From NCBI GenBank assembly GCA_943371055.1, contig CALRTJ020000013.1, positions 33,518 to 97,517 of the forward strand: 64,000 bases of DNA, in the 5' to 3' direction. This DNA comes from Hydrogenophaga intermedia (lineage in GTDB: Bacteria > Pseudomonadota > Gammaproteobacteria > Burkholderiales > Burkholderiaceae_C). A program made the translations under genes and the position numbers. Positions 2,936-54,570 of the stretch are shown here, piece after piece; within the stretch, counting starts at the first letter, position 1; every line of letters starts with the position of its first letter. A model generated the notes under the pieces. The model saw nothing but the letters and a program-made list of their open reading frames with translations, made no database searches and was not told the DNA's origin.

Positions 2936-3139
2936 AGTTCACTCCTTGGGTTTGATGTCTTGGGAACGGTCCAGTGATGAGGCCCACTGGTCAGGCCGGA
3001 ACTGAGGTAATGAGGTGTTTGAGGCTCTATTTATGGCGAGCGCGCACCGGCTCATTCATGGTCAGTGCGGCTCACAGGAGCTGTCTTGGATGATAAGGGG
3101 TACTAAACACCGTGGATTCAAACGCGTCGTTTATCGAGC

Positions 3140-3478: not shown

Positions 3479-3500
3479 TCACTGCCAGAGCGGCGCGGTA

Positions 3501-4145: not shown

Positions 4146-4205
4146 CGATCAAGCATAGCCCGCCTGGCTCACCCAGTGGGCCTGCAGAGCTCTAGGCTGG
4201 CCGGC

Positions 4206-4595: not shown

Positions 4596-4644
4596 AAGCC
4601 GCTGGGGGATCCCTGCCAACCAATGGCGCCTGCCAGAGCGGAGG

Positions 4645-6233: not shown

Positions 6234-6289
6234 GGTGTTCTCCTTGGAGGGCCCCCCCATTTGGGGGGTGAAGTGTTGGTGCAGGGCGC

Positions 6290-7291: not shown

Positions 7292-7426
7292 CAGGGTTCT
7301 CCTTTCCCCCGAAAAGGGGTGATCGAAGCCACCAGCACAAAGCCCCCGCTCAGCCGAAGAGGCTGAGCGGGGGCTTATGCCGGTGAGGAGCGGCGTGACG
7401 CCGCGGGAGAGTTGGGCTCGGGTGGC

Positions 7427-8395: not shown

Positions 8396-8493
8396 GGGGA
8401 TCTCCTTCAAGAGAGGGGGAAATAGAGCGCGCATGCGGCAGCCCGGCCAGGTGCCGATGGGCTGTTTGGGGGGATGAGGACCGGCAGAGCCGG

Positions 8494-8742
8494 TCAGGCA
8501 GGGGGCTTGAAGCCGCAGGCCTGGCAGCGGAAGCGGCAGACGACGTTCTCGTCGATGGCCTCACCAATGGAGGCCCCGAGCGAGAGCCCGCTGAGCGTGG
8601 CCGCCACGATGCTCTTCACGCCGCGGCCGGCCCGGTAAGCCAAGGCCAGCCCTGTGGCACAGCCAAGCGCCGAGGTGATGCGCCTGACCAGCGGAACAGG
8701 GGCCAAGGCCACGGCACCGCAGTGGGGGCACGGCCTCGTCAT
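8494..8742 (-). CDS. small Cys-rich (zinc-ribbon-like) hypothetical protein
   Basis: 82 aa with an N-terminal CPHC and a C-terminal CRFRCQAC flanking a hydrophobic segment. It is on the same strand as, and upstream of, DUF932. No clear RBS. Confidence 0.35.
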   Translation of the reverse strand: MTRPCPHCGAVALAPVPLVRRITSALGCATGLALAYRAGRGVKSIVAATLSGLSLGASIGEAIDENVVCRFRCQACGFKPPA

Positions 8743-9108
8743 CTGATGCAGCACCACAGGAACGGCGGCACGCGGCCCCAACGCATCACGCCCAGGAGCA
8801 GTGCGGTGCAGGAGCAGCCCAGGCAGAACGCGATGACGAACGCCCAGAGGTAGGCGCCAGGGGAAGGGTAGGGTGGCAAGTGGACCTCCTAGTCCGGTGG
8901 ATGGGCCAGACCGCATAAACGCCAGGGGATCGCTCCGCCTGGCCCTGGTTCTGGTGACAGCGCATGGGGCTGTCGAGGAGGTCATATGGGACTGAAAACT
9001 TCTGCAGCACAGTGGCGTAGCCGCTACTGCCGGTGGGTGACACTGGGTAAAGTCGCGGCACAGAGCCCGGAAGCGAGGCCAGAACTGTGGCCCACGTAGA
9101 AAACCAAG

Positions 9109-12100
9109 ATGAAGACCATTCAAGACCTACTCGACCACTATCGCGTTACGGCCCAAACCGAACGTGAGAAGGGGGCGTACTTTGAAGAGTTGATCCTGTG
9201 CTACCTGCGTCACGAAGCCAGCTATCGGGATCTCTACGACAAGGTTTGGACTTACTCAGACTGGGCGGCCGAGAACGGCTTGGACAGGCGCGACACAGGT
9301 ATCGATCTGGTCGCTCGCGCTTCTGGCACCGGCGAGTTCCACGCCATCCAGTGCAAGCTGTACGACCCGACCTACCGGCTCCAGAAGGCGGACATCGACA
9401 GCTTCTTCACCGCCTCCGGCAAGAAGCCGTTCACCCACCGGGTGATCGTCAGCACGACCAACCTGTGGAGCGAGCACGCTGAGGATGCGCTGCGCGATCA
9501 GCAGCCCCCGGTCAGCAAGATCGATCTGCACGACCTGGAAAACAGCCAGATCGACTGGTCGGCCTACCAGCCCAAGGCCCCGCCGAAGCTCAAGGACCGC
9601 AAGCAACTCCGGCCGCATCAGGAGCTGGCGGTTGAAAAGGTGGTGGCCGGCCTGGCCGACAACGATCGCGGCAAGCTGATCATGGCCTGCGGCACCGGCA
9701 AGACCTTCACCAGCCTGAAGGTGGCCGAACAGCTGGCCGGGGCAGGCAAGCGGGTGCTGTTCCTGGTGCCCAGCCTGGCGCTGCTGTCGCAATCGCTGAC
9801 AGAGTGGACCCAAGAGAGCGCCGTTCCACTGCACAGCTTTGCGGTGTGCTCGGACGGCGACGTCGGCAAGAAGCGCACCAAAGATGACGACGTGGTGCAG
9901 ACGTTCATGCACGAGCTGCGCTACCCAGCGACGACGAGCCCCCAGCGCCTGGCCGCGGAGATGGCAAGGCGGCACGACGCTGCGCACATGAGCGTCGTCT
10001 TCAGCACCTACCACTCGATCGACGTGATCAGCCAGGCCCAGAAGGCGGGCCTGGCCGACTTCGATTTGGTCATCTGCGACGAGGCGCACCGCACCACGGG
10101 CGCCACATTCGACGGTGAGGAAGAGAGCAACTTCGTCCGGGTTCATGACGCGGGCTTCATCCACGCCGCGAAACGGCTGTACATGACGGCCACCCCCCGC
10201 ATCTTTGGCGAGCACGCCAAGGCCAGTGCGGAGAAGGACAACGTCGCGCTGTGTAGCATGGACGACCCCGCGCTGTACGGGCCTGAGCTGCACGTCATCA
10301 CCTTCTCCGAGGCGGTGAAGCGCGGCCTGCTGGTGGACTACAAAGTGATCGTGCTGGCCGTCGAGGAGAAGCATGTCAACCGCCGGCTGCAAAAACTGCT
10401 GTCCGACGAGAACAACCAGGTCAAGGTGGACGATGCGGCCAAGATCGTCGGCTGCTGGAAGGCACTTTCGAAGCAGGGCCTGGCTGAGAGCCTGACCGGC
10501 GATGAGCGGCCGATGCAGCGCGCCGTGGCGTTCTGCCAGGTGATCGAGGTTGCCAAGGGCGCCAAGACCCACAAGACCAGCTCTAAGAACATCGCGGGCA
10601 TGTTCCAGGCGGTGGTCGAGGCCTACAAGGAGAGCGTGGCCGACGACGAGGAGTCGCGCGAGGAAGCTTCGATCAAGCTCGCCTGCGAGGCCGAGCACGT
10701 GGACGGCGGCATGAATGCCAGCGCCAAGGAAGCCAAGCTGGCCTGGCTCAAGTCCGAGCCGCCCGAGGAGACCTGCCGCATCCTGAGCAACGTGCGCTGC
10801 CTGTCCGAAGGCGTGGACGTGCCGGCGCTGGACGCCGTGCTGTTCCTCACCCCCCGTAACTCCCAGGTGGACGTGGTTCAGTCGGTGGGGCGCGTGATGC
10901 GCACGGTCAAGGACCCGGTGACGGGTGAAGACAAGAAGAAGCGCGGCTACATCGTGCTTCCCGTCGTCATCCCTGCAGGTGTCGAGGCCCACGAGGCCCT
11001 GAACGACAACAAGACCTACAAGGTGGTCTGGCAGGTGCTGCAGGCCCTGCGCTCGCACGACGATCGTTTCGACGCGATGGTCAATAAGCTCGACCTGATC
11101 GGCAAGGACACCTCCAAAATGGAGGTCATTGCCGTCACGGACAAGATCCAGCGCAAGGCCAAGAAGACCCCTGGCGAGGACAAGGAGAAGACCAAGCGCA
11201 AGAAGCTAGCGAAGAAGGCCAAAGGCGGCAACAGCATCGGCACTGCGACGGGCGGCCAGGGTGAGCAGACCCAGGAGAGCTTCGAGTTCGAGATCGGCGA
11301 GATCGAGAAGGCCATGTACGCCAAGCTGGTGGAGAAGGTGGGCAACCGCCATCACTGGGAGGACTGGGCCAACGACATCGCCAAGATCGCCCGCACCCAC
11401 ATCGACCGCATCGAAGCCCTGCTGGAGAACCCGGCTAACACCAAGGAGCGCGAGGCCTTTGCCAGCTTCGCGGCCGAGCTGCGCGACGATCTGAACGACA
11501 GCATCACCGACGGCGAGATCGTCGAGATGCTGGCCCAGCACTTGATCACCAAGCCGGTGTTCGACGCGCTCTTTGAGGGCTACAGCTTCGCTAGCAAGAA
11601 CCCCATGAGTCAGGCCATGCAGGGCGTGCTGGACGCTTTGCAGGAGCACCACCTGGACAAGGAGGCCGACACGCTGCAGGCGTTCTACGACAGCGTGAAG
11701 CTTCGTGCCTCAGGCATCGACAACGCGGACGGCAAGCAGAAAATCGTTGTCGAGCTATACAACAACTTCTTCTCCAAAGCGTTCCCACTTCTGCGCGACA
11801 AACTTGGAATCGTCTACACGCCAGTCGAGGTAGTGGACTTCATCATCCACAGCGTCAACGACGTGCTGCAGTCAGAGTTCGACCAGACGCTGGGCAGCAA
11901 GGGCGTGCACATCATCGACCCGTTCACCGGCACGGGCACTTTCATCACGCGCCTGCTGCAGAGCGGCCTGATCACGCCCGAGCAGCTGCGCGACAAGTAC
12001 AAGCACGAGATCCACGCGAACGAGATCGTTCTGCTGGCCTACTACATCGCGGCCATCAACATCGAGGCGGTCTACCACAGCCTGGCGGGTGGTGAGTACG

Positions 12101-14106
12101 AGCCTTTCGAGGGCATCTGCCTGACTGACACGTTCCAGATGTACGAAAAGGACGATCTGGTCAGCGACGTGCTGGTCGACAACGGCACGCGGCGCAAGCG
12201 GCAGAAGAAGCTGGACATCCGAGTGATCATCGGTAACCCGCCGTACTCGGTGGGACAGAAGAGCGAGAACGACAACAACGACAACGTCACGTACCCACAC
12301 CTGGACCGCCGGATCCGGGAGACCTATGCCGCCCGGTCGGACGCCGTGCTGGCCAAGGGCCTGTACGACAGCTACATCCGTGCCATCCGCTGGGCCAGCG
12401 ACCGTGTCGGCGAGAGTGGTGTGATCGGTTTCGTGACCAACGCGGGCTTCCTGGAAGCCAACACGGCGGACGGGCTTCGCAGGTGCTTGGTCGACGAGTT
12501 CAGCAGCCTCTACGTCTTCCATCTGCGTGGCAACCAGCGAACAGCCGGCGAACTGTCGCGCAAGGAGGGCGGAAAGATCTTCGGCAGTGGCAGCCGCGCC
12601 CCGATCGCCATCACTGTGCTGGTGAAGAACCCGGACGCAGCACAGATGGGCCGGATTTTCTTCCACGACATTGGCGACTACCTCAGCCGCGAGGACAAGC
12701 TAGAGAAGATCAGCGACTACCGCAGCGTGGTCGGCATCACCGAGACGCAGGGCTGGCAGGCGATCACGCCAGACGAACACGGCGACTGGCTCAAGCAACG
12801 GGATGACAGCTTCTCGGACTACATCGTGCTGGGTGACAAGAAGGGCTCTGGGCCGAAACTGTTCGATAACTTCTCTTTGGGCGTGGTCACCAACCGAGAT
12901 GCCTGGTGCTACAACTCATCCAAGATGGCCGTGTCCGCCAACATGACGCGGATGATTGGCTTCTACAACCAGGAAGCCAAGCGCTTCGACACGGCTCACC
13001 CTGGCCTGGACAAGAGGCAGCGCGAAGACCTGTTGGATGATTTCATTGATGCTGACGCAGCGAAGATCGCCTGGACCCGATCGCTGAAGCAGGAACTGGC
13101 CAAGGACCGCCGGTTTGCATTCGACGAAGGCTGCTTAGTGCCTGGCCTCTACAGGCCATTCATGAAGCAGTGGTTGTACTTCAACCGCCGCTTCAATGAG
13201 ATGGTCTACCAGATGCCGAAGTTCTTTCCGGACGCGAAGTCGGAAAACCTCGTGATCGGCGTATCGGCCTCGGATTCCCGGAGCGCCTATTCGGTGTTCA
13301 TCAGCGACCATGTCGCCAGCCTTCACGCCGTGGACATGGTGGGATCGCAGTACTTTCCCCTGTACCTGTACGACGATCCGGAAGACGACGCGCCGACCAA
13401 TGAATCAACGCAACGGCCCATGTTTGACGAAGCTGCGGCACCCGCCAAGTTGCCCACCCGCAAGCGCCGGGACGCCATCACCGCTGAAGGCCTAGCCCAT
13501 TTCCAAGCCGCCTACCCCGGCGAGGACATCAGCCGCGAGGATGTCTTCTACTACGTCTATGGCCTGCTTCACTCGCCGGACTACCGCGAGCGTTTCGCCG
13601 ACAACCTGGGTAAGGAACTGCCGCGCATCCCGTGCGTGACCAGCGCGACCGACTTTCGTGCCTTCAGCACGGCAGGGCGCCATTTGGCGAAACTGCACCT
13701 GAAGTACGAAGAGGTGCCAATGTTTGCCGCTCGCGTCGACGGCGACGACATGTCCAAACCGCCCAAGCTGGACGCAGCCGACTACCGCGTCGAAAAGATG
13801 AAGTTTGGCAAGACCGGCAAGGACAAGGATCAGACCACCATCCACTACAACCACAAGATCGTGGTCAAGGGCATTCCTCTTGAAGCGTACGAGTACGTCG
13901 TCAACGGCAAGCCGGCAATCGAGTGGGTGATGGACCGCCAGGTCGTCAAGCCCGACAAGGCCAGCGGCATCGTCAACGACGCTAACGACTGGGCGGTGGA
14001 AACGATGGGCAACCCGCGCTACCCGCTGGAACTGCTGCTGCGCGTGGTCACGGTCAGCGTCGAGACGATGAAGATCGTCAACGCGCTACCCAAGCTGGCG
14101 ATCTAA
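9109..14106 (+). CDS. Type ISP restriction-modification enzyme (Mrr-like nuclease, SF2 helicase-like ATPase, N6-adenine methyltransferase and target-recognition domain in one chain; LlaGI/LlaBIII-like)
   Basis: The N-terminal Mrr/PD-(D/E)xK region is DLVAR...EFHAIQCK. Walker A is MACGTGKT (nt 9685-9705) and DEAH lies at nt 10078-10089. MTase motif I is DPFTGTGTF (about nt 11917). Motif IV GNPPY lies at nt 12232-12246. A C-terminal region of about 500 aa follows. Total length 1665 aa. Confidence 0.9.
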   Translation: MKTIQDLLDHYRVTAQTEREKGAYFEELILCYLRHEASYRDLYDKVWTYSDWAAENGLDRRDTGIDLVARASGTGEFHAIQCKLYDPTYRLQKADIDSFFTASGKKPFTHRVIVSTTNLWSEHAEDALRDQQPPVSKIDLHDLENSQIDWSAYQPKAPPKLKDRKQLRPHQELAVEKVVAGLADNDRGKLIMACGTGKTFTSLKVAEQLAGAGKRVLFLVPSLALLSQSLTEWTQESAVPLHSFAVCSDGDVGKKRTKDDDVVQTFMHELRYPATTSPQRLAAEMARRHDAAHMSVVFSTYHSIDVISQAQKAGLADFDLVICDEAHRTTGATFDGEEESNFVRVHDAGFIHAAKRLYMTATPRIFGEHAKASAEKDNVALCSMDDPALYGPELHVITFSEAVKRGLLVDYKVIVLAVEEKHVNRRLQKLLSDENNQVKVDDAAKIVGCWKALSKQGLAESLTGDERPMQRAVAFCQVIEVAKGAKTHKTSSKNIAGMFQAVVEAYKESVADDEESREEASIKLACEAEHVDGGMNASAKEAKLAWLKSEPPEETCRILSNVRCLSEGVDVPALDAVLFLTPRNSQVDVVQSVGRVMRTVKDPVTGEDKKKRGYIVLPVVIPAGVEAHEALNDNKTYKVVWQVLQALRSHDDRFDAMVNKLDLIGKDTSKMEVIAVTDKIQRKAKKTPGEDKEKTKRKKLAKKAKGGNSIGTATGGQGEQTQESFEFEIGEIEKAMYAKLVEKVGNRHHWEDWANDIAKIARTHIDRIEALLENPANTKEREAFASFAAELRDDLNDSITDGEIVEMLAQHLITKPVFDALFEGYSFASKNPMSQAMQGVLDALQEHHLDKEADTLQAFYDSVKLRASGIDNADGKQKIVVELYNNFFSKAFPLLRDKLGIVYTPVEVVDFIIHSVNDVLQSEFDQTLGSKGVHIIDPFTGTGTFITRLLQSGLITPEQLRDKYKHEIHANEIVLLAYYIAAINIEAVYHSLAGGEYEPFEGICLTDTFQMYEKDDLVSDVLVDNGTRRKRQKKLDIRVIIGNPPYSVGQKSENDNNDNVTYPHLDRRIRETYAARSDAVLAKGLYDSYIRAIRWASDRVGESGVIGFVTNAGFLEANTADGLRRCLVDEFSSLYVFHLRGNQRTAGELSRKEGGKIFGSGSRAPIAITVLVKNPDAAQMGRIFFHDIGDYLSREDKLEKISDYRSVVGITETQGWQAITPDEHGDWLKQRDDSFSDYIVLGDKKGSGPKLFDNFSLGVVTNRDAWCYNSSKMAVSANMTRMIGFYNQEAKRFDTAHPGLDKRQREDLLDDFIDADAAKIAWTRSLKQELAKDRRFAFDEGCLVPGLYRPFMKQWLYFNRRFNEMVYQMPKFFPDAKSENLVIGVSASDSRSAYSVFISDHVASLHAVDMVGSQYFPLYLYDDPEDDAPTNESTQRPMFDEAAAPAKLPTRKRRDAITAEGLAHFQAAYPGEDISREDVFYYVYGLLHSPDYRERFADNLGKELPRIPCVTSATDFRAFSTAGRHLAKLHLKYEEVPMFAARVDGDDMSKPPKLDAADYRVEKMKFGKTGKDKDQTTIHYNHKIVVKGIPLEAYEYVVNGKPAIEWVMDRQVVKPDKASGIVNDANDWAVETMGNPRYPLELLLRVVTVSVETMKIVNALPKLAI

Positions 14107-42650: not shown

Positions 42651-42758
42651 GCCCCGCGACGGCCCTGCGCGGGGCCGGGTGGCGGACATTTGGGACAATC
42701 GCGGCTTCCCCCACTTTTCCCGGGCGCCGCCTGTTTCGCGGCCCACCCGGCTCATGCC

Positions 42759-43397
42759 ATGACCTACAGCGTCAAGGAGGTCTTCCTCACCCTGCAGGGC
42801 GAGGGCGGCCAGGCCGGCCGTGCCGCGGTGTTCTGCCGCTTCGCCGGCTGCAACCTCTGGAGCGGCCGTGAGGCCGACCGCGACAGCGCCAGCACCGTCT
42901 GCCGTTTCTGCGACACCGATTTCGTCGGCACCGACGGCAGCGGGGGCGGCAAGTTCGAACACGCCGACGCGCTGGCCGACCACATCGCCTCGCACTGGCC
43001 TGTCGGCCGCCCGAACGCGATGGTGGTGCTCACCGGCGGCGAGCCCCTGCTGCAGGTCGACACCGCGCTGATCGACGCGCTGCACGCCCGCGGCCTGCGC
43101 ATCGCGGTGGAGAGCAACGGCACCGTGGTGGCCCCCGAGGGCATCGACTGGCTGTGCATCAGCCCCAAGGCCGGCGCGCCGCTGCTGCAGCGCCAGGGCC
43201 AGGAGCTGAAGGTGGTGGTGCCCCAGGCGGGCCTGGACCTGGACGCGCTGGCGGCGCTGCCCTTCGAGCAGCATTTCCTGCAGGCCATGGACGGCCCGGC
43301 CCGCCAGGCCAACACCGCCTGGGCGGTGCAGCGCTGTCTGGACGACCCGCGCTGGCGCTTGTCGGTGCAGACCCACAAGCACCTGGGCATCCGCTGA
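42759..43397 (+). CDS. queE: 7-carboxy-7-deazaguanine synthase (radical SAM)
   Basis: EVFLTLQGEGGQAGRAAVFCRFAGCNLWSG...C..CDT is the QueE-specific radical SAM motif. The ending SVQTHKHLGIR fits the family. Confidence 0.9.
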   Translation: MTYSVKEVFLTLQGEGGQAGRAAVFCRFAGCNLWSGREADRDSASTVCRFCDTDFVGTDGSGGGKFEHADALADHIASHWPVGRPNAMVVLTGGEPLLQVDTALIDALHARGLRIAVESNGTVVAPEGIDWLCISPKAGAPLLQRQGQELKVVVPQAGLDLDALAALPFEQHFLQAMDGPARQANTAWAVQRCLDDPRWRLSVQTHKHLGIR

Positions 43398-44257: not shown

Positions 44258-44899
44258 TCAGTCCTTCAGCAGCCGCCAGCCAAACCCGATCAGGAACACC
44301 CCCGCCAGCCGCTCCAGCCAGCGGGCCAGCGAGCGGTGCGCCCTCACCTGCTGGGCGACGGCCTGGGCGAAGGCGCACAGGGCCAGGCAGTAGACCGCGG
44401 TGATCGCGGCGATGGTGGCCGCCATGGTGGCGAAGGTGGGCAGGCCGCGGTGCTGGGCGGGGTCGATGAAGAGCGGGAAGAAGGCCATGTAGAACACGAT
44501 GGCCTTGGGGTTGAGCAGGGTGATCAGCAGGCTCTGGCGGAAGTAGTGGTGCGGCTCGATCCGCACCGGGCTGGCCGACTCGCCGTCCTTGGCGGTCAGC
44601 AGCTTCAAGCCGATCCAGGCCAGGTAGGCGGCGCCGGCCCAGCGCACGGCGCTGAACAGCGCGGGGTACGCGGCCATCAGCGCGGCCACGCCGGCCACCG
44701 CCAGCCACAGCAGGACCTGGTCGCCCACGATGATGCCGGCGGTGGCCGCGGCTCCGGCCCGGAAGCCGCCCTTGGCGGTGCTGGTGAGCAGGGCGAAGGT
44801 GCCGGGCCCTGGCAAGGCCAGGAACAACACGATGGCGGCGCAGAAGGCCGGGTAGTCGGCGATGCCCATGAACGGGCCCAGCAGGGTCAGGTGCTCCAT
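44258..44899 (-). CDS. LysE/RhtB-family amino-acid exporter
   Basis: 213 aa with six TM segments. The PGPGTFALL motif near the N-terminus is typical of the LysE family. Confidence 0.85.
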   Translation of the reverse strand: MEHLTLLGPFMGIADYPAFCAAIVLFLALPGPGTFALLTSTAKGGFRAGAAATAGIIVGDQVLLWLAVAGVAALMAAYPALFSAVRWAGAAYLAWIGLKLLTAKDGESASPVRIEPHHYFRQSLLITLLNPKAIVFYMAFFPLFIDPAQHRGLPTFATMAATIAAITAVYCLALCAFAQAVAQQVRAHRSLARWLERLAGVFLIGFGWRLLKD

Positions 44900-44927
44900 C
44901 GTTTCAGGATAGCGCAGCGCCCTGCCC

Positions 44928-44993
44928 TGTGGACAAGTCTGTGGATCAGCCCGGGAACAAGGGGTGGATGCCTTGTGGAGGGGGTGTGGACGG
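44928..44993 (+). promoter_or_regulatory. array of five same-orientation (T/G)GTGGA motifs (DnaA-box-like), spaced 11-12 bp or about twice that
   Basis: TGTGGACAA at 44928, TGTGGATCA at 44940, GGTGGATGC at 44963, TGTGGAGGG at 44974, TGTGGACGG at 44985. The complement of the DnaA-box consensus is TGTGGATAA. The array fills the 94-bp gap between the rsmG stop and the lysE-family start. Confidence 0.3.
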
Positions 44994-45653
44994 TCAGGCG
45001 GCGGGGCGCATCCAGACGATGCAGCGCTCGGCGTCCAGTCCGGGCACCTGCAAAGGTTCCACGTGGAACAGTGACACGTCTGCGGGCACGGCGCCCCGCT
45101 CTTCCGGGGTGAGTTTGGCCTTCATGGCGGCCCAGGTGCCGCCGGGGGCCAGGCGCTCGCGGGTCAGGTCGATGAAGTCCACCAGGGACGCGAAGGCGCG
45201 CGAGGTGATCATCTGGAACGGCGGCTCCTTCATGGCCTCGACCCGGGCGTGCACGGCCTGCAGGTTCTTCAGGCCGAGTTCGGCCGCGGCCTGGCGGATG
45301 AAGGTGGCCTTCTTCGCGACGGTGTCCACGCAGGTGATCGACCAGCCGGGGTTGGCGATGGCCAGCACCACGCCGGGCAGGCCAGCGCCGCTGCCGACAT
45401 CCAGCAGGCGGAGGTCGTCGGCGTGGCCCTGGGTGGCGGCCTGGGTGCGCAGGGGCGCCACCACGGTCAGGCAGTCCAGCAGGTGTTGGGCCAACATCTG
45501 CTGCGGGTCGCGGATGGCGGTCAGGTTGTAGACCTTGTTCCAGCGGCCGATCAGGTCCAGGTAGTCCAGCAGTTGCTGCGGGGCTTGGGGCGGCAGGGTC
45601 AGGCCGAGGGTCTCGATGCCTTGGGCCAGGGCGGCGGCTTGCGGGTGGGTCAT
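44994..45653 (-). CDS. rsmG: 16S rRNA (guanine527-N7)-methyltransferase RsmG (GidB)
   Basis: SAM motif [12 protein letters not shown] and the family block ITSRAFA. ATGA overlap with the mnmG stop codon. Confidence 0.9.
45055..45070. promoter_or_regulatory. parS-like ParB binding site (15/16 palindromic) inside rsmG
   Basis: GGTTCCACGTGGAACA compared with consensus TGTTNCACGTGAAACA. It encodes LFHVEP of RsmG. Confidence 0.6.
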
Positions 45654-47662
45654 TCGGCGCCCTCCTCTGCCGTGGCGGCGGCCCTGCCCTCGAAGCCCTT
45701 GAAGCGCTTCTTCTTCAGGTGCACCAGCAGCAGCGAGATCGCGGCCGGGGTCACGCCCGAGATGCGCGAGGCCTGGCCCAGGGTCTCGGGACGCTGGCGG
45801 GCCAGCTTCTGGCGCACCTCGTGGCTGAGGGCGCTGACCTGGCTGTAGTCCAGTTCGGGGGGCAGTTTCAGGTGTTCGTAGGCCTGGGCCCGGCTCACCT
45901 CCTCCACCTGCTTGTCGATGTAGCCGGCGTACTTGATGCCGATCTCCACTTGTTCGATCACGTCGCGGGCCAGGGTGCTGCCCAGTTGGGTGCTCAGTGT
46001 TTCACGTGAAACACCGGCCTCGGGGCGGGCGTGGGCGGCCAGGGCGGCGACCTTGTCGAAGTCGATGCCCGGGCGGCGCAGCAGGTCGGCCAGGTTGTAT
46101 TCGCGCTCGATGGTCTTGCCCAGCAGGGGCTCGGCCACCTCGGCCGGCAGGATGCCGGGGTGGACCCAGGTACTCTTCAGGCGCTCTGTTTCACGTGAAA
46201 CAGCGTCCCGCTTGCGGTTGAAGGCGTCCCAGCGGGCGTCGTCCACCAGGCCCAGGCCGCGGCCGATCTCGGTCAGGCGGGCATCGGCGTTGTCCTCGCG
46301 CAGCTGCAGCCGGAACTCGGCGCGGCTGGTGAACATGCGGTAGGGCTCGGACACGCCCTTGCCCACCAGGTCGTCCACCAGCACGCCCAGGTAGGCCTGG
46401 TCGCGGCGCAGGCTGAGGGCCGGGCGGCCCAGCACCTGGGCGGCGGCGTTGGCGCCCGCGAACAGGCCCTGGGCGGCGGCCTCTTCGTAGCCGGTGGTGC
46501 CGTTGATCTGACCGGCGAAGAACAGGCCGCGGATGGCCCGGGTCTCGAACAGCGGGCTCAGCTCGCGCGGGTCGAAGTAGTCGTACTCGATCGCGTAACC
46601 GGGGCGCAGGATGTGCGCCTGCTCCAGGCCCACCATCGAGCGCACCGCAGCGAGCTGGATGTCGAAGGGCAGCGAGGTGGAGATGCCGTTGGGGTAGAAC
46701 TCGTGGGTGGTCAGGCCCTCGGGCTCCAGGAAGATCTGGTGGCTGTCCTTGTCGGCGAAGCGGTTGATCTTGTCCTCGATGCTGGGGCAATAGCGCGGGC
46801 CCACGCCTTCGATGATGCCGGTGAACATCGGGCTGCGGTCGAAGCCGGAGCGGATGATCTCGTGCGTGCGCTCGTTGGTGTGGGTGATCCAGCAAGGCAG
46901 CTGGCGCGGGTGCATCCCGGCGTGGCCCAGGAAGCTGAACACCGGCACGTCGGGGCCGCTGGCGGCCGACTCGCCGTAGCGGCCCACCAGGGGCACGCCA
47001 TCGCCGGGCTGCTCGGTCAGGCGGGCGAAGTCGATGGTGCGGCCGTCCAGGCGCGGCGGGGTACCGGTCTTCAGGCGGCCCTGGGGCAGCTTCAGTTCTT
47101 TCAGCCGGGCCGACAGGCGCACGGCCGGCAGGTCACCGGCGCGGCCACCGGCGTGGTTCGCCAGGCCGACGTGGATCTTGCCATCCAGGAAGGTGCCGGC
47201 GGTCAGCACCACGCTGTGGCCCTTGAAGGTGATGCCCAGCTGGGTGACGGCGCCGGTCACGCGGTCGCCCTCGACCACCAGGTCGTCCACCGCCTGCTGG
47301 AAGATCGTCAGGTTCGGCTGGTTCTCCAGGCGCTGGCGGATCGCGGCCTTGTACAGCAGCCGGTCGGCCTGGGCGCGGGTGGCGCGCACGGCCGGGCCCT
47401 TGCTGGAGTTGAGGATGCGGAACTGGATGCCGCCCTCGTCGGTGGCCAGGCCCATGGCGCCGCCCAGGGCGTCCACCTCCTTGACCAGGTGGCCCTTGCC
47501 GATCCCGCCGATGGACGGGTTGCAGCTCATCTGACCCAGGGTCTCGATGTTGTGGGTGAGCAGCAGCGTGGCGGCGCCCATGCGGGCGGCGGCCAGGGCG
47601 GCCTCGGTGCCGGCGTGGCCGCCACCGACGACGATGACGTCGAATTCCTGGGGGTAGATCAT
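45650..47662 (-). CDS. mnmG: tRNA uridine-5-carboxymethylaminomethyl(34) synthesis enzyme MnmG (GidA)
   Basis: [29 protein letters not shown] is the FAD motif. The sequence is collinear with MnmG throughout as I recall it ([38 protein letters not shown]). Confidence 0.95.
45998..46013. promoter_or_regulatory. perfect palindromic parS site inside mnmG
   Basis: TGTTTCACGTGAAACA, an exact match to the parS consensus. It encodes VSRET. Confidence 0.85.
46187..46202. promoter_or_regulatory. perfect palindromic parS site inside mnmG (second copy)
   Basis: An identical TGTTTCACGTGAAACA lies 189 bp from the first copy. It encodes a second VSRET. Confidence 0.85.
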
Positions 47663-47789
47663 GGGCGAGCGCGGGAGCGCCGCGGCCTCGCGCGCGCGGT
47701 GCATCAACCAGATGGGGAAGCCGCAATTTTAGGCGGCGGCGGCCCCGCGCGCACGGGCCGGGCCGCCATGCCGCGGGGACAATCACCGC

Positions 47790-48050
47790 ATGGAGTGCCG
47801 TTCTCGTTGCGCCGCCTGCTGCACGGCGCCGTCCATCAGCAGCCCGATCCCCGGCATGCCCCAGGGCAAGCCGGCGGGGGTGCGCTGCATCCAGCTCGAC
47901 GACGAGGACCGCTGCCGGCTGTTCGGCGACCCGCGGCGCCCGGCGGTGTGCGGCTCGCTGCAGCCCTCCGAGGACATGTGCGGCGACAGCCGCGAGCAGG
48001 CGATGCGCTGGCTCAGTGGGCTGGAATCGCTGACGCGTCCGGGCTGCTGA
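47790..48050 (+). CDS. small YkgJ-family cysteine-cluster protein
   Basis: 86 aa. CRSRCAACC...C...C...C pattern. It is a second paralogue of the gene at 16476. Confidence 0.7.
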
Positions 48051-48255
48051 ACGCGGGACCGGACGGCGTGGCGGAGGCGCCCCGCCCGTCCACCCAACGG
48101 GCCCAGCCCTTGTCGAAGAAGTAGTGGGCGACGGTGTTGACCACCGGCTCCACCAGGGTCATGGCCCCGGCGATGGCCAGGCTGCCGGTCAGCGCGTAGC
48201 CCACGCCGAACGAGGTGGCGATGTGCACGAGACCGAAGGCGGCGGACTTGGCCAT
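48013..48255 (-). CDS. DUF2061-family membrane protein
   Basis: 80 aa with two TM helices. The pattern [38 protein letters not shown] resembles DUF2061. It has a 38-nt convergent overlap with the ykgJ-like gene. Confidence 0.65.
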
Positions 48256-49123: not shown

Positions 49124-49318
49124 ATGAAAGCCAACGTCGGCGGCATCGACCGCATCGCCCGCATCGTCCTCGGTCTGGTCCTGATCGGCCTGGCCGCCAC
49201 TGGCACGGTGGGTGCCTGGGGCTGGATCGGCCTGGTGCCCCTGGCCACCGGCCTGACCCGCTTCTGCCCGCTCTACCCGATGCTGGGCATGAGCACCTGC
49301 CCGATGCAGAAGCCCTGA
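49124..49318 (+). CDS. DUF2892 (YgaP-like) small membrane protein
   Basis: 64 aa. NVGGIDRIARIVLGLVLI...TRFCPLY is the DUF2892 signature. Confidence 0.85.
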   Translation: MKANVGGIDRIARIVLGLVLIGLAATGTVGAWGWIGLVPLATGLTRFCPLYPMLGMSTCPMQKP

Positions 49319-49336: not shown

Positions 49337-49375
49337 AAGGCCCGGCACGCCATGAGGCGTGGCCGGGCCTTTTGT
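49337..49375. terminator. hairpin terminator between the convergent DUF2892 gene and the repeat-peptide gene
   Basis: aaggcccggcacgcc-atga-ggcgtggccgggcctt is followed by tttg. Confidence 0.65.
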
Positions 49376-49417: not shown

Positions 49418-49585
49418 TCACCAACCGCCCGTGCGCGGCAGCTCGGTGCTGATCCAGCCGCCCGTGCGGGGCAGTTCCGTGGAGGACACCCAGCCCCCCG
49501 TGCGCGGCAGGTCCGTGGTGGACATCCAGCCACCGGTGCGGGGCAGTTCGGTGGAGGCCTGGGCGATGACAGCGTTCGTTTGCAT
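49418..49585 (-). CDS. 55-aa tandem-repeat peptide: MQTNAVIAQAST followed by four (S/T-rich linker + [E/D]LPRTGGW) units; candidate multi-core peptide precursor
   Basis: AGGAG lies 6 nt upstream of the ATG. The stop codon directly follows the last Trp, and a terminator lies just downstream. Within the octapeptide core the repeat units differ only at codon third positions. The strand assignment rests on the RBS, stop and terminator, because the opposite-strand frame shares the same third positions. Confidence 0.55.
   Translation of the reverse strand: MQTNAVIAQASTELPRTGGWMSTTDLPRTGGWVSSTELPRTGGWISTELPRTGGW
49421..49552. repeat. four tandem 33-36-nt DNA repeats
   Basis: The units begin at 49421, 49454, 49490 and 49526. 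Each contains cca-Ncc-Ncc-Ngt-gcg-Ngg-cag-Ntc. Confidence 0.9.
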
Positions 49586-49693
49586 GATGTGCTCCTGGGT
49601 CAAGGGGTTCATTCGTGGTCCGAATGAATCCATTGCACCAGTCGCACCCGCTGTCCGACAGCTACATGGCAGGGCAGGTTGACAGCCGCGGCC

Positions 49694-50428
49694 TCATCGC
49701 CTAGGCGCTTCGATCAAGCCCAGTCGCATCGCTTTGGCAGCGGCCGAATGCTTGGTCGCGCAGCCCAGCTTTCTCATGGCGTTCTTCAGGTGGAACGCCA
49801 CCGTGTGTTCGCTGATGTGCAACAACTGCCCCACGACCCAGGCGCTCTTGTCCTGCGCGGTCCAGCTGAGCACATCCTGCTCACGCATCGTCAGCTGAAC
49901 GGCAGGCTCCTCGGGGTCGGGCAGCTGGATCAGGCGCATCGCGGCGTTCTGGCTGCACAGTGCCATCAGCTGCAGCTCCTGCAGCAATGCGCCCCGGGTG
50001 TCCGCGTTGCGTGGCAGTGGATCCGGGCCGTTGACACCCAGCAGGTAATGCCGACCCGGGAAGGGGCGCATCGCAAGCCCCATGCCCTCACAGAATCCAT
50101 GGGGGGCCTGCTCCTCCCACAGGTCCTCGGCCTCGGCCTGCTGGTAGGTGTGGCGGTTCCAGACCACGGGCACCGTCTGGCACTTCAAGGCCTTGAGCAC
50201 CGGGTCTCGCCGCGAGTTGTCGGGGTCCTTGTGGGCCTTGTAGTAGGCCTCGGGGATGTTCCCGACGGAGAGGAACTGGGCTGCGCCTTCGGGTCGGTCC
50301 ACCACCATGGCTGCACTGACGGTGGCGAAATCGCGCTGGTGGGCAAAGCGCACCAGTGCGGACTGCAGGTCCTGCAGGGTGGCCGCGTTGGCCGCCTCCA
50401 GAAACTCGACCGGAATCGTCGCCAGCAT
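49694..50428 (-). CDS. LuxR-family regulator with autoinducer-binding-type N-domain (LuxR solo; no luxI in the window)
   Basis: The C-terminal HTH is LTMREQDVLSWTAQDKSAWVVGQLLHISEHTVAFHLKNAMRKLG. The N-terminal domain of about 160 aa has the size and pattern of an autoinducer-binding domain. Confidence 0.85.
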   Translation of the reverse strand: MLATIPVEFLEAANAATLQDLQSALVRFAHQRDFATVSAAMVVDRPEGAAQFLSVGNIPEAYYKAHKDPDNSRRDPVLKALKCQTVPVVWNRHTYQQAEAEDLWEEQAPHGFCEGMGLAMRPFPGRHYLLGVNGPDPLPRNADTRGALLQELQLMALCSQNAAMRLIQLPDPEEPAVQLTMREQDVLSWTAQDKSAWVVGQLLHISEHTVAFHLKNAMRKLGCATKHSAAAKAMRLGLIEAPRR

Positions 50429-50553
50429 CAAGGCCGGGCCTCCGTCGCGGCCGCGGGCCGACCTACCCACCCTGGCAGGTTGACCCGGGCGAGGCCCGCT
50501 TCACAATGGTGACGCGTCCACTTCATCCGGTCGGTCGATCGGCAAGCCCCGCC

Positions 50554-51221: not shown

Positions 51222-52385
51222 TCAGCGCGCCACCACCCGCCCCAGCTGCCGCGCCACCACCGCCAGCACCGCGGCGGTCAACAGCACGCAGACCAGCGCC
51301 GGGAGCGCCAGGTCGCCCGCGGTGATGGCCTCGGCCTTGAGGACCCGGGTCATCAGGGTGCTCTGGGCGACCACCGGCAGCCACAACTGCCAGGGCTTTT
51401 CGCCGGTCTGGTTGAGCATGGACACCACCGGCAGCAGGCTGACCACCAGCACCAGCAGCGTGGAACTCGCCTGGGCCTCCTTGACGCTGCGGCAGCGGAT
51501 GGCCAGGGCCATCATGGCCGCGGCCAGCAGGCCGGCCAGGGGCAGCAGCAGCAGCACGAAGGCGCCGGCCTCTTGCCAGCCGAAGCGGAACATCGCGGCC
51601 AGCTGGTCGCTGCGCAGCAGCCACTGACCCGGCAGGAAGCTCAGGCAGGACAGCACGGCGATGGCCATGCCGACCAGGGCCACCGCGGCCCACTTGCCGG
51701 CCACCAGGGCGCCGCGCGGGGCGGGGTTCATCAGCAGCGGCTCGAGCGAGCCGCGCTCGCGCTCGCCGGCGGTGCTGTCGAGGGCCGCGCCCAGTGCCCC
51801 CGAGACCACCGCCATCAGCACCATGAAGGGCAGCATGGACATCAGGGTGGCGCCGCGGGCGGCGGGGTCGGCCAGGTCCTGCGTGTCCAGCGTGGCGGGC
51901 TGCAGCACGGCGGGCGAGACGCCGCGCAGCACCAGCTCCAGCGTGGCGCGCTCGCGCAGCCAGCCCTGCACCAGGTCCTGCACCCGGCGCTGCGCCTGGC
52001 TGGCGCGGCTGTTGGCGCTGTCGCCCACCAGGGTCAGGCGCGGCATCTCGCCGCGCGCCATCGCCGCCTCGAAGCCTTCGGGCACCCGCAGCACCGGTTC
52101 GCCCTGGCGGTTGGCGCGCAGCTCGGCTTCGAAGCCGGTCGGCGCGTCGCGCACCGTCCAGCCTTGCCGCTCGACGAAGTTGCGCAAGGAGGGCGCATGC
52201 TCCAGTCCCTGCACCCGCAGCTCTCGGGACTCGACATGGCGCTCCATGTCGTCCACCTGCATCGAGATCAGGCCCAGCATCAACGGGCCGGGCAGCACCG
52301 CGCTCAGCAGCACCGCGCGCAGGGTGCGGCGGTCGCGCAGGGCGTCGCGCAGCTCTTTCAGGAAAACCCACCAGGCGTGTCTCAT
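51222..52385 (-). CDS. ABC-2-type exporter permease (NatB-like)
   Basis: One N-terminal TM is followed by a large extracytoplasmic loop, then five C-terminal TMs. ATGA overlap with the upstream ATPase gene. Confidence 0.8.
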   Translation of the reverse strand: MRHAWWVFLKELRDALRDRRTLRAVLLSAVLPGPLMLGLISMQVDDMERHVESRELRVQGLEHAPSLRNFVERQGWTVRDAPTGFEAELRANRQGEPVLRVPEGFEAAMARGEMPRLTLVGDSANSRASQAQRRVQDLVQGWLRERATLELVLRGVSPAVLQPATLDTQDLADPAARGATLMSMLPFMVLMAVVSGALGAALDSTAGERERGSLEPLLMNPAPRGALVAGKWAAVALVGMAIAVLSCLSFLPGQWLLRSDQLAAMFRFGWQEAGAFVLLLLPLAGLLAAAMMALAIRCRSVKEAQASSTLLVLVVSLLPVVSMLNQTGEKPWQLWLPVVAQSTLMTRVLKAEAITAGDLALPALVCVLLTAAVLAVVARQLGRVVAR

Positions 52386-53152
52386 CGGGCCGCTCCTTGC
52401 GCGTCGGCGGGGGTGAAGGCCAGGTCGATGAAGGCCTGTTCGAAGTCGTCGCGGCCGGTGCGGGCCAGCAGCTCGGGCACGCTGCCGCGGGCCACGGTGC
52501 GGCCATGGGCCATGACCACGACCTCGTCGCACAGGCGCTCGACCTCCTGCATGATGTGGGTGGAGAAGACGATGCACTTGCCCTGCTCGTCGCGCAGCCG
52601 GCGCAGCGACTCGCGCAGCGCGCGGGTGGCCAGCACGTCCAGGCCGTTGGTGGGCTCGTCGAGCACGATGTTGGCCGGGTCGTGCACCAGGGCCCGGGCC
52701 AGCGCGGTCTTCATGCGCTCGCCCTGACTGAAGCCCTCGGTGCGGCGGTCCAGCAGCGGCCGCAGGTCCAGCTGCTCGGCCAGCACCTCGGCGCGGGCCT
52801 CGGCGGCCCCGGCGTCCAGGCCCTGCAGGCGGCCGTAGTAGACGATGTTCTCGCGCGCGGTCAGGCGCGGGTACAGGCCGCGGGCATCGGACAGCACGCC
52901 CAGCCGGGCCTGGGTCTGGCGCGGCGCGCGGGCCACGTCCAGCCCGTCGACGGTCACCCGGCCCTCGTCGGCCGCGCCCAGACCGGCCACCACCCGCAGC
53001 GTGGTGGTCTTGCCGGCCCCGTTGGGGCCCAGCAGGCCGGTGATGCGGCCGTCGGCGGCGCGCCAGCTGGCGCCCTGCACCGCCTGGACCACCTGGGCCT
53101 TGCGGCCCCAGCCGCTGCGGAAGCGGCAGTGGAGTTGTTCAACCTCGATCAT
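52382..53152 (-). CDS. ABC transporter ATP-binding protein (NatA-like)
   Basis: Walker A GPNGAGKTT, signature FSQGERMK, Walker B IVLDEPTNGLD and the H-loop STH are present. Confidence 0.9.
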   Translation of the reverse strand: MIEVEQLHCRFRSGWGRKAQVVQAVQGASWRAADGRITGLLGPNGAGKTTTLRVVAGLGAADEGRVTVDGLDVARAPRQTQARLGVLSDARGLYPRLTARENIVYYGRLQGLDAGAAEARAEVLAEQLDLRPLLDRRTEGFSQGERMKTALARALVHDPANIVLDEPTNGLDVLATRALRESLRRLRDEQGKCIVFSTHIMQEVERLCDEVVVMAHGRTVARGSVPELLARTGRDDFEQAFIDLAFTPADAQGAAR

Positions 53153-54570
53153 CGGGCGCTCTCCGCCAGGGGTTGGAAGGGCTGCGGGCGCGGCAGTTTG
53201 GCGGCGCAGTCGGCGTCCTCGCGGGCGCGGGCCAGCGCGGCGGCGTCGTCGTCCTGCTCGATGAAGCGCTGCACCGCCTCGCGCACGCAGGCCAGGCCCA
53301 GCAGGCCGTGACCGGCCTGCGGCGCCAGCAGCTGCACCGCCTGCGGGCCCAGGGCCTCGGCCACGCGCCGGGCATGGCGCGGCGGCGTCACCGGGTCCTG
53401 GCCACCGGACAGCAGCAGCACCGGTTGGCGCGCCGGCGGCAGGCGGGCGTGGTCGGCGGGCAGCGGGCGGCGCGGCCAGTCGGCGCAGACCTCGCGGTAC
53501 AGGCGCAGGCTGGCCTGGCCCACCGGGTGGGGCGTGCCGGCATCGGGGGGCAGCGGGTCCTCGGTGCAGACCACCGAGAAGTGCTCGCCCTCGGCCAGCA
53601 TCGGGCGGCTGCCGGCCGACAGGCTGCCGCCCAGGGTCAGCAGCGGGCCGAAGTCGCCGGCGGCGGCGCGGCGGATCGCGGCCGGCAGCGCGGCGGCCAT
53701 GGCTGGCTGGTAGAGCGCGGGACGCACCATCGCGGCCACGGCGTCGCGCTCGAGCCGGACCGTTTCCTCGCGGCCGGTCAGCGGGTGGCGCACGGTGGCG
53801 CGCTGCGGCAGACCGGCGAGCAGGGCCTGCCAGGCGGCGGTGGTGCCGGGCTGGGTGGCCTCGGCGCTGGCCAGCAGGGCGTCGAAGGCGGCCTGGCTGT
53901 CCTCGGCCATCGACTGCGCCAGGCCCATGCCGGGCGGCGCCACGCCGTCGAGCACCACGCGGCGCACGCTGGCCGGGAACTGGCGCTGGTAGTCCAGGGC
54001 CACGCGGGTGCCGTAGGACACGCCCACCACGTTGACCGGGCCCAGGCCCAGGGCCTGGCGCACGGCCTCGGCGTCCTGGCTGGCCAGGTCGGTGGTGTAG
54101 AAGCGCAGGTCGCCGTGCGGCAGGGCCTGCAGGCGCTGGCGGCATTCGCGCAGGCGCTGGCGCTCGGCCTCGCCGTCCAGGGCGCGGGCCAGCGGCCGGG
54201 TGGGGTCGGTCTTGTCCTCGCAGGTCAGCGGGGCGCTGCGGCCGGTGCCGCGCTGGTCGATCAGCACCAGGTCACGGCGCGTGGGCAGACGGCCCAGCAG
54301 GGCCTGGACCTGGGGGGCCAGGTCCAGTGCGCTCTGGCCGGGCCCGCCGGCGAAGAACAGCACCGGGTCGGGCTTGGGGTGGCGCGCCAGCGCGGGCAGC
54401 ACGGCCAGGTGCAGCTGCACCTGCGGGCCGTCCGGGCGGGCCGGGTCCAGCGGGCGGTTCAGGGTGGCGCAACGGGCCTCGTGGGCCAGGCCGGGCAGTC
54501 GGCAGGGCTGGGTGGCCAGGGGTGCGGCCAGGGCCAGGGGCGCCCACCCGGTCAGGGCGAGCGCCAGCAT
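53149..54570 (-). CDS. secreted alpha/beta hydrolase (S33 peptidase / TAP-like)
   Basis: A signal peptide is present. Oxyanion region FFAGGPGQS and nucleophile elbow GVSYG. The C-terminal SGGQDPVTP...AGHG is consistent with the Asp/His of the triad. ATGA overlap with the ATPase gene. Confidence 0.8.
   Translation of the reverse strand: MLALALTGWAPLALAAPLATQPCRLPGLAHEARCATLNRPLDPARPDGPQVQLHLAVLPALARHPKPDPVLFFAGGPGQSALDLAPQVQALLGRLPTRRDLVLIDQRGTGRSAPLTCEDKTDPTRPLARALDGEAERQRLRECRQRLQALPHGDLRFYTTDLASQDAEAVRQALGLGPVNVVGVSYGTRVALDYQRQFPASVRRVVLDGVAPPGMGLAQSMAEDSQAAFDALLASAEATQPGTTAAWQALLAGLPQRATVRHPLTGREETVRLERDAVAAMVRPALYQPAMAAALPAAIRRAAAGDFGPLLTLGGSLSAGSRPMLAEGEHFSVVCTEDPLPPDAGTPHPVGQASLRLYREVCADWPRRPLPADHARLPPARQPVLLLSGGQDPVTPPRHARRVAEALGPQAVQLLAPQAGHGLLGLACVREAVQRFIEQDDDAAALARAREDADCAAKLPRPQPFQPLAESAR

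Follow-up and report, generated by a model that had tools for sequence, protein, structure and literature searches.

The 64-kb stretch of Hydrogenophaga intermedia DNA analysed here (contig CALRTJ020000013.1; hereafter the window, to the full length of which all coordinates refer) carries on its minus strand, directly downstream of a gene for a LuxR-family regulator, a tiny open reading frame (ORF) of 55 codons followed by TGA. Its product reads MQTNAVIAQAST-ELPRTGGW-MSTT-DLPRTGGW-VSST-ELPRTGGW-IST-ELPRTGGW-stop, and we refer to it as the micro-gene and to its repeated octapeptide as the core. Together with luxR and a divergent gene of the RsaM family it forms a conserved three-gene cassette (rsaM-like <-> luxR -> micro-gene), the features of which are collected in Table 1.

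Re-reading of the sequence confirmed the layout described in an earlier note on this DNA, with AGGAG 6 nt before the start codon and the stop right after the last Trp. The four 24-nt cores differ in five alignment columns, every one a third codon position, and the exchange of E for D is the sole amino-acid change, exactly as the note had it. Tandem Repeats Finder detected the array with periods of 36 (score 152) and 72 (score 191). No signal-peptide-like N-terminus is visible in the product, in agreement with the lack of a Sec-type signal stated earlier. The ORF was called by the gene caller in an identical Logan contig. A 71-aa form starting at the upstream in-frame ATG at 49633 was rejected, as this codon has no Shine-Dalgarno (SD) sequence, lies inside a conserved -10-like element and is missing in the orthologues.

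A word-indexed protein search with the peptide gave zero matches, no Pfam or NCBIfam family was matched, a literature search for 'PRTGGW' retrieved no paper and other literature searches nothing relevant; the author of the earlier note had not recognised the motif either. Nowhere in the resources searched are the micro-gene, its family, the plasticity of its repeats or its place in the slot of luxI described.

Table 1 Features of the micro-gene locus and of the adjoining operon in the window
Feature	Position	Strand	Remarks
Micro-ORF: 12-residue leader, four [E/D]LPRTGGW cores, three linkers of 3-4 residues	49418..49585	-	
Leader MQTNAVIAQAST	49550..49585	-	Clade 1 keeps the M-x-x-x-A-V-[IT] part
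Core 1 ELPRTGGW	49526..49549	-	
Core 2 DLPRTGGW	49490..49513	-	
Core 3 ELPRTGGW	49454..49477	-	
Core 4 ELPRTGGW	49421..49444	-	TGA (49418-49420) abuts the last TGG
Shine-Dalgarno AGGAG	49592..49596	-	6 nt 5' of the ATG at 49585
5'-UTR (untranslated region) hairpin, 8-bp stem, 5-nt loop	49608..49628	-	z = -5.3
Extended -10-like element TGGTGCAAT	49632..49640	-	22 nt 3' of the lux box; kept in all clade 1 loci
Lux-box-like palindrome ACCTGCCCTGCCATGTAGCT (CT-N12-AG)	49660..49679	-	Centre 84.5 nt upstream of the micro-ORF ATG
LuxR-family regulator, Autoind_bind + GerE helix-turn-helix (Pfam), non-canonical ligand pocket	49694..50428	-	244-aa form on record
Second lux-box-like palindrome ACCTGCCAGGGTGGGTAGGT	50461..50480		rsaM-luxR intergenic region; centre 83.5 nt upstream of the rsaM-like ATG, end 33 nt upstream of the luxR ATG
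CACAAT -10-like hexamer for the rsaM-like gene	50502..50507	+	21 nt after the box; promoter scan match 50480-50507
RsaM-family (DUF4902) gene, 140 aa	50554..50976	+	Divergent from luxR
G+C-rich hairpin, 15-bp stem	49337..49371		Shared with the convergent YgaP-like gene (49124-49318, +)
Accessory operon	51222..54570	-	Between GST (glutathione S-transferase) and rsaM in some lineages only
ABC-2 (ATP-binding cassette) permease	51222-52385	-	Like the permease half of the ABC-permease/CPBP-protease fusion family NF041647
ABC ATPase, 256 aa	52382-53152	-	
Secreted S33-type alpha/beta hydrolase	53149-54570	-	Weakly prolyl-aminopeptidase-like

Relatives of the micro-gene and constraint on its core

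Orthologues of the LuxR protein with more than 60% identity form six clusters (62-94%), all metagenomic. Contigs were obtained for five of them, along with one identical copy of the window locus, and all five contig sets carry a small ORF at the equivalent place directly downstream of luxR. At L010 (LuxR 74% identical) it encodes MQTNAVITFAST and four DFPRTGGW cores with the linkers CSSV, CGQA and CSQT; L048 (72%) has a four-copy variant with different linkers; the product is MNPIAVIASQRDFPRTGGW at L014 (69%), MQKFAVIAAQLDFPRTGGW at L003 (67%) and MNLNAVTTLP[ST]TLDIPRVGGW at L006-L009 (62%). At all these loci, termed clade 1, TGA follows immediately after the Trp, though the flanking DNA is unalignable.

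More distant loci were reached with a profile of six aligned rsaM-like proteins, which retrieved six of them from metagenomes. At another distant locus, L042, the LuxR (P0007) of which is only 37% identical, a homologue of the 140-aa rsaM-like gene again diverges from luxR; the RsaM-like proteins of clade 2 show 27-33% identity. An ORF of 18 codons lies directly after luxR in L042 and in three of the six (clade 2), and the four peptides (MSFHDLICELFGLPRVGG-stop, MIFIDLICEILGLPRVGG-stop, MTFLQIVYELFGLPRFGG-stop and MELFNLILEIFGIPRFGG-stop) end in ...PRxGG-stop without Trp. The element invariant across the family is consequently hydrophobic-P-R-x-G-G, to which clade 1 and four database clusters (see below) add a terminal aromatic residue. 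With a sister clade devoid of Trp, cleavage after each Trp, by which the earlier note had defined the products, is weakened as a definition and not favoured as a rule.

Every locus of both clades has (A/G)GGAG 6-8 nt before the ATG. The SD, the ATG and the immediate TGA are kept at 13 related loci in the two clades in spite of unalignable flanks. Across the relatives the copy number of the core ranges from one to four, and at the loci of the two clades luxR stands always directly upstream.

A scan of 185,579 species-representative genomes with a degenerate DNA pattern returned 27 matches, two of which were true and 25 due to chance. The true ones come from the cultured Ideonella alba 3Y2 and I. 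aquatica 4Y11 (Sphaerotilaceae, Burkholderiales), both with an L014-type peptide; the genome to which the window belongs does not figure among the matched GTDB species representatives. The two genomes share synteny over GST, rsaM-like, luxR, peptide, YgaP, Crp, DUF2061, mnmG, rsmG and LysE. We also observed that in the window (44258-48255) and at L020/L028 the cassette adjoins mnmG, rsmG and a LysE/LeuE-type exporter, in the same order as in both Ideonella. In four Acidobacteriota metagenome-assembled genomes (L021, L022, L030, L031) a 51-codon frame ending in DFPR[TI]GGW-stop runs antisense within a conserved PhzF-like gene and was set aside as chance.

An exhaustive phmmer search of 1.84 billion representative proteins gave 68 matches, among which four clusters are genuine relatives: P0025 with two core copies, P0067 with three copies of E/D-[FL]-PRVG(G)-[F/W], P0068 with three of xFPRTGGW, and the metagenomic P0079/P0084 with three of ALPRFGGW. 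Translated CRISPR arrays (VAPRTGAWIET, VSLPRLGGWRA) and S/T-rich repeat proteins that bear no relation to the peptide make up the remainder. Arrays translated by gene callers, P0017, P0021, P0023 and P0024 among others, account for most of the matches and are a trap for anyone mining PRxGxW repeats. Altogether, loci found through LuxR orthologues have one or four cores and relatives known from sequence alone two or three; leaders measure about 11-15 residues and the genes 18-56 codons. The family is rare and new, and is carried by Ideonella and related Burkholderiales.

Several resemblances of the core to known motifs were followed up and rejected. P0079 scored 24.8 bits (cut-off 20.3) on Pfam PF05627, the AvrRpt2-cleavage/NOI domain, and the hydrophobic-P-[R]-x-G-x-W core resembles [V]P[K]FGxW of RIN4. 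The NOI of RIN4, a plant-only family, comprises a PxFGxW motif and a second motif, Y/FTxxF (PMC3661340). The window peptide gave no match to PF05627 at E <= 10, has Thr in place of Phe and is devoid of the second motif; so short a motif has most likely arisen convergently, although the similarity would gain interest should a C70-type protease be encoded in the P0079/P0084 genomes. A sortase LPXTG signal does not fit, with V/F for Thr and F/I for Leu in relatives and a stop where a hydrophobic stretch and a basic tail are expected, nor does a double-glycine leader of the kind cleaved by peptidase-containing ABC transporters (PCAT), as GG lies at the C-terminal end with 0-1 residue after it and the ABC ATPase nearby is devoid of a C39 domain. 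A Trp-sensing leader or attenuator peptide was likewise rejected as a reading of the micro-ORF.

Over 15 core units, variation is seen at six of the seven third positions open to synonymous change, against three of the 16 first and second positions, where the changes are conservative only (L/F/I, T/V and D/E). When L010 is compared with L048, 10 nucleotide and no amino-acid differences fall in the 32 core codons, and 17 and six, respectively, in the 24 leader and linker codons; the cores of the P0068 cluster are free of substitutions, which are confined to other sites such as the residue that follows the last Trp (V/A/I). These comparisons support a genuine protein-coding gene under purifying selection, with the repeated core as its functional unit. 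The third-position pattern does not fix the strand, since the phase-matched antisense frame (HQPPVRG...) has an equal synonymous excess (16 synonymous and six non-synonymous changes, compared with 15 and six in sense); that argument, used in the earlier note, thus holds for coding constraint and fails for strand. We assign the minus strand on other grounds: the conserved SD-ATG and immediate stop, the orientation of the promoter and lux box, the conservative changes in the sense frame, and antisense ORFs that have neither a conserved start nor a conserved stop.

The luxR-rsaM cassette and the slot of luxI

The window LuxR has both domains expected of the family (PF03472, E = 5e-15; PF00196, E = 2e-14), and its best matches among solved structures are QscR, LasR, SdiA and RhlR. 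DUF4902 is the RsaM domain. The divergent 140-aa protein scores 21.1 bits on it, under the cut-off of 25, and its Ideonella alba orthologue 28.8 bits, over the cut-off; a profile of six orthologues, searched against all solved structures, retrieved RsaM BCAM1869 (PDB 4o2h) alone (E = 2e-7). At all loci the rsaM-luxR intergenic distance is 92-128 nt, with rsaM divergent from luxR and no adjacent luxI. According to a review of RsaM, rsaM genes always adjoin luxI and/or luxR (PMC10710839). The rsaM-luxR solo arrangement itself is already known, and the locus fits the type 6 topology of Burkholderiales, in which rsaM diverges from luxR and luxI is not nearby, and which comprises the genera Pelomonas, Kinneretia, Albitalea and Xenophilus. 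In the searched passages of the review no micro-ORF downstream of luxR is mentioned, the word 'peptide' does not occur in its text and Ideonella is not listed (PMC10710839). The cassette is minimal at L003 and in both Ideonella, where rsaM, luxR and the peptide gene stand alone, flanked by GST and by YgaP/Crp/mnmG.

The position of the micro-gene is invariable in both clades, directly downstream of luxR. Among LuxRs that belong to neither clade, the closest (P0009-P0011, 28-33% identity) have luxI in this very slot. A tblastn search with two LuxI proteins found nothing credible in the window or at any clade 1 or clade 2 locus, and Pfam scans of window and loci detected no Autoind_synth domain (PF00765). 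The link to a LuxR gene noted earlier thus proved stronger than suspected, with the regulator directly upstream, a lux-box-like site in front and the micro-gene in luxI's slot.

The ligand pocket differs cleanly between the two kinds of loci. We compared 13 LuxRs aligned to LasR, QscR and SdiA (LasR numbering). Those with a downstream luxI (P0009-P0011) keep Y56, W60, Y64, D73, P74 and W88, whereas in those with a downstream micro-gene Y56 is replaced by I/F/T, W60 by Y/F/H and Y64 by H/A, with D73 and P74 kept; position 88 is W in clade 1 and Y in clade 2, the clade without the peptide Trp. Six residues of TraR (W57, Y61, D70, P71, W85 and G113) define AHL (N-acyl-homoserine lactone) binders (PMC10134790). 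LasR W60 and Y64 correspond to TraR W57 and Y61, both substituted in the micro-gene LuxRs, while D70, P71 and W85 are kept in clade 1. With these residues altered, canonical binding of AHLs by the micro-gene LuxRs appears unlikely, which would place them among solos of class C/D (non-AHL ligand) or class E (ligand-free). Core and pocket also show small co-variations, over too few lineages to serve as a test: Leu in the core goes with Y60 in the window, and Phe in the core with F60 in the DFPR lineages.

Two lux-box-like palindromes are present per locus; within a clade they resemble each other, and the two clades differ in them. Clade 1 has at every locus A[CG]CTGC[CT]-N7-GTAGCT, a CT-N12-AG dyad, some 85 nt ahead of the start codon of the micro-gene, and clade 2 has ACCTGGAAGGATTGCTAGGT in the equivalent place. 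The second box, in the rsaM-luxR intergenic region, is kept in all loci of both clades, in clade 2 as AGCTGGCAGACTTG..AGGT. A similar box precedes the luxI start of P0009. Downstream of the first box, TGGTGCAAT may serve as a promoter element; downstream of the second, a [CG]ACAAT hexamer is conserved in rsaM-like orthologues, and the layout mirrors that of the micro-ORF promoter. In canonical systems LuxR with its AHL activates both luxI and rsaM. By the same layout, LuxR would here drive the micro-gene as well as rsaM.

The 5' UTR of the micro-gene (49586-49645, minus strand) can fold into the hairpin listed in Table 1, with an outer stem in which CUGG pairs with CCAG just before and overlapping the SD. 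A hairpin occurs at the matching place in orthologues; its covariation is weak. The hairpin beyond the stop codon (z = -4.3 against shuffles), conserved in L010, L048 and L006, had been described as a strong terminator of the micro-gene. The hairpin is real and strong, but its T-run lies on the plus-strand side and faces the YgaP-like gene, and a consensus terminator scan did not call it; it is probably in the first place the terminator of that gene and at best bidirectional.

A proposed gene-encoded ligand and its alternatives

Since the luxI slot is occupied by the micro-gene and the adjacent LuxR is without its AHL-contact residues, we tentatively favour the proposal that in this quorum-sensing-type cassette luxI was replaced by a peptide gene, the core of which is the cognate ligand, or signal, of LuxR. 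As judged from the sequences, the LuxR would bind the two CT-N12-AG boxes and from them drive the micro-gene and the divergent RsaM-family gene, respectively. LuxR has lost the residues that hold AHLs, and a gene-encoded ligand would have taken luxI's place. The precursor would yield one to four hydrophobic-P-R-x-G-G(W) cores and, processed or intact, exported or not, the core would act as the signal through presumed contact with LuxR. Positive feedback would run via the lux box of the micro-gene and negative feedback via RsaM, and each transcript would give more peptide through tandem amplification from one to four copies, as it does in pheromone precursors with several copies.

The cassette can be set against several known systems. 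Compared with luxI-rsaM-luxR cassettes such as cepI-BCAM1869-cepR of Burkholderia cenocepacia, it is alike in the LuxR domains, the adjacent RsaM/DUF4902 gene, the lux-box palindromes and the number of three genes, but has no LuxI, carries a peptide gene of 18-56 codons in its slot and has lost the equivalents of LasR Y56/W60/Y64. More generally, the receptor domains and, at sequence level, the lux boxes of AHL-based LuxI/LuxR systems are present, while a nearby LuxI and the AHL-pocket residues are missing. Class C LuxR solos respond to endogenous non-AHL small molecules made by enzymes, e.g., PluR to photopyrones and PauR to dialkylresorcinols (PMC10134790). The substituted AHL pocket is shared with them, whereas the candidate signal here is a ribosomal peptide encoded beside its receptor.

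Peptide pheromones encoded next to their receptors are known from streptococci, where the Rgg/SHP and ComR/XIP systems (RRNPP family) combine an ORF of about 20 codons with a neighbouring cytoplasmic receptor under whose control it stands. The short hydrophobic peptides (SHPs) have a conserved C-terminal part of about eight residues that starts with Asp/Glu and in some cases ends in Gly-Gly, and they are not known in a tandem multi-copy form. In its proposed working the cassette comes closest to these systems, the resemblance seen being one of architecture only: the micro-gene is likewise a tiny ORF by a receptor gene with a conserved C-terminal part starting with Asp/Glu. Its receptor is of LuxR type and not a tetratricopeptide repeat protein, its host is a Gram-negative betaproteobacterium, and Eep, PptAB and Opp are not found at the locus; with a different receptor fold, the cassette falls outside the Rgg/SHP family. 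Multi-copy precursors such as yeast alpha-factor, cyanobactin PatE and plant lyciumin or orbitide precursors have near-identical cores, short drifting spacers and variable copy number. Conserved cores, drifting linkers and variable copies are found in the micro-gene as well, but it has a short leader (11-13 residues) and neither a signal sequence, Kex2-type dibasic sites, an adjacent protease, a macrocyclase nor a BURP domain.

Several points weigh against the core as a ligand of LuxR. Adjacency and a lux box fit a mere target gene equally well. The absence of luxI covers the window and the related loci, as opposed to distant parts of the genome. The pockets of LuxR-type receptors accommodate ligands of about 200-300 Da, so that an octapeptide would need trimming or another surface of the receptor. 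The minimal cassette is devoid of a dedicated exporter, protease or importer, the product has no signal peptide, and clade 1 has a very short, polar leader. The covariation of core and pocket rests on very few independent lineages. Matches to the lux box in the window (four, with 2.5 expected) are not unusual alone, and the weight of the boxes therefore comes from their positional conservation and the clade-specific co-variation of both, not from the count.

That a LuxR-family receptor has actually switched from AHL to a ribosomal peptide autoinducer, with luxI replaced and the RsaM brake retained, we regard as doubtful. If true, it would provide the first peptide ligand for an Autoind_bind domain and a natural hybrid of Gram-negative (LuxR) and Gram-positive (peptide pheromone) signalling logics, in a family thought to sense only small lipid-like molecules and for which the micro-gene is now a candidate peptide signal. 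Few orphan receptors of Proteobacteria are as abundant as the LuxR solos, most of which have no known ligand, and RsaM is a dominant quorum-sensing regulator of unexplained mechanism. The cassette supplies a genetically encoded candidate ligand, making it testable what AHL-blind LuxRs sense, with the two Ideonella strains as cultured carriers, and it illustrates the rewiring of quorum sensing once the synthase is lost.

The main alternative, which has some real chance of being right, is that the micro-gene is an output, the main target of a LuxR solo that works without ligand or senses another molecule. The peptide would then be an effector (surfactant, toxin, antimicrobial, metal-binding or interspecies signal) whose cores were amplified for dosage. 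In staphylococci, AgrA directly controls the phenol-soluble modulin and delta-toxin peptides, the analogue of such an arrangement. The lux box upstream of the micro-gene would be expected of a target, the short, hydrophobic peptides of clade 2 (MELFNLILEIFGIPRFGG and similar) recall amphipathic effectors, and in some lineages an ABC-2 exporter adjoins the cassette. LuxR solos often regulate a neighbouring gene, e.g., the pip genes (PMC10134790). An output gene, however, leaves unexplained the precise position in the luxI slot, the retention of a homologue of RsaM, which regulates signal production in canonical systems, and the coincidence of lost AHL-contact residues with a peptide gene. Moreover, the clade 1 product is polar rather than amphipathic, and the locus has no immunity gene and no consistent exporter gene. 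Even as a mere output, the micro-gene would represent a new rare family of 18-56 codons with copy-number plasticity that annotation has overlooked.

It is improbable, in our estimate, that the uncleaved product acts inside the cell as a micro-protein that binds RsaM, LuxR or another partner as anti-activator or anti-repressor, with the copies providing multivalency. Such a function would suit a product without signal peptide, a minimal cassette without processing enzyme or exporter, and single-copy forms of 18-21 residues that require no processing. RsaM has no known molecular partner, and a natural RsaM-LuxR fusion hints at protein-protein interplay (PMC10710839). The linkers, however, vary freely in length and sequence and the copy number changes from one to four between close relatives, which is more precursor- than scaffold-like, and canonical RsaM systems function without any such peptide.

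A classical multi-core precursor of a RiPP (ribosomally synthesised and post-translationally modified peptide), with its enzymes, protease and transporter encoded elsewhere in the genome and a modified Trp peptide produced under LuxR, is quite improbable. In purely descriptive terms the product shares with RiPP precursors a leader followed by one to four cores, with a conserved aromatic and a conserved acidic residue. Domain scans of the 64 kb, however, detected no RiPP tailoring enzyme, RiPP recognition element (RRE) protein, PCAT, sortase or peptide importer. The only radical S-adenosylmethionine (SAM) gene in the window (42690-43394), considered as a tailoring enzyme, is QueE (TIGR04508, 331 bits) and was rejected. 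The candidates for a RiPP-type peptidase and exporter, the S33-type hydrolase and the ABC-2 transporter, are present in the window, L010 and L006 but not in L003 or Ideonella, where the minimal cassette is set among housekeeping genes. The leader of about 11 residues, the Trp-less clade 2 and the lack of any match to an NCBIfam or Pfam precursor family count against a RiPP. The modification of the peptide contemplated in the earlier note is thus not supported, no tailoring enzyme being found in the window or in the minimal cassettes.

It is barely credible that the stretch is no gene at all, whether the decayed 5' end of a luxI, a tandem repeat in neutral DNA, an ORF read in antisense or an element that acts in cis as RNA or DNA. 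In favour of such a reading, the substitutions fit the phase-matched antisense frame as well, gene callers missed three of the five variants retrieved via LuxR orthologues and the protein database search was empty. Against it, the SD, ATG and immediate TGA persist at the 13 loci, the sense frame has only conservative changes in the cores, neither start, stop nor SD is conserved for the antisense ORFs, the sole Rfam match in the region was to a eukaryotic snoRNA and below threshold, and a period of 33-36 nt without spacers (only 9-12 nt between cores), together with the existence of single-copy orthologues, rules out a CRISPR array.

Neighbouring genes and minor observations

The accessory operon (Table 1) encodes the hydrolase, the ABC ATPase and the permease. 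The window, L010 and L006 carry it, whereas L003 and the two Ideonella genomes do not. It has no lux box upstream and is at most accessory to the cassette. The S33 peptidase beside a LuxR solo in the window recalls the pip genes, which adjoin plant-associated LuxR solos (PMC10134790).

At three clade 2 loci (L042, 1870-2241; L053, 2591-3016, minus strand; L055, 2277-2651, minus strand) a conserved ORF of 123-141 aa lies within about 30 nt after the peptide gene and is probably co-transcribed with it. It gave no informative Pfam or PDB match, and the window has no counterpart. A search of plasmids with the LuxR query returned no match.

The loci with a single DFPRTGGW copy (L003, 2562-2588; L020, about 1864-1887; L014; L028) share a conserved stretch about 95 nt past the peptide stop, which is missing in the window, L010, L048 and L006. 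It comprises its own GGAG, 7-8 codons reading (M)MDATPVR-stop with synonymous differences, and then a T-run terminator; a second micro-peptide and an RNA element are both conceivable readings.

Finally, the left end of the window, at 2600-14103, resembles a mobile or integrated element unrelated to the micro-gene, with genes for a SRAP peptidase, a Gp3-like recombination directionality factor, a YqaJ recombinase, a DUF932 protein and a 1665-aa Type ISP restriction-modification enzyme.

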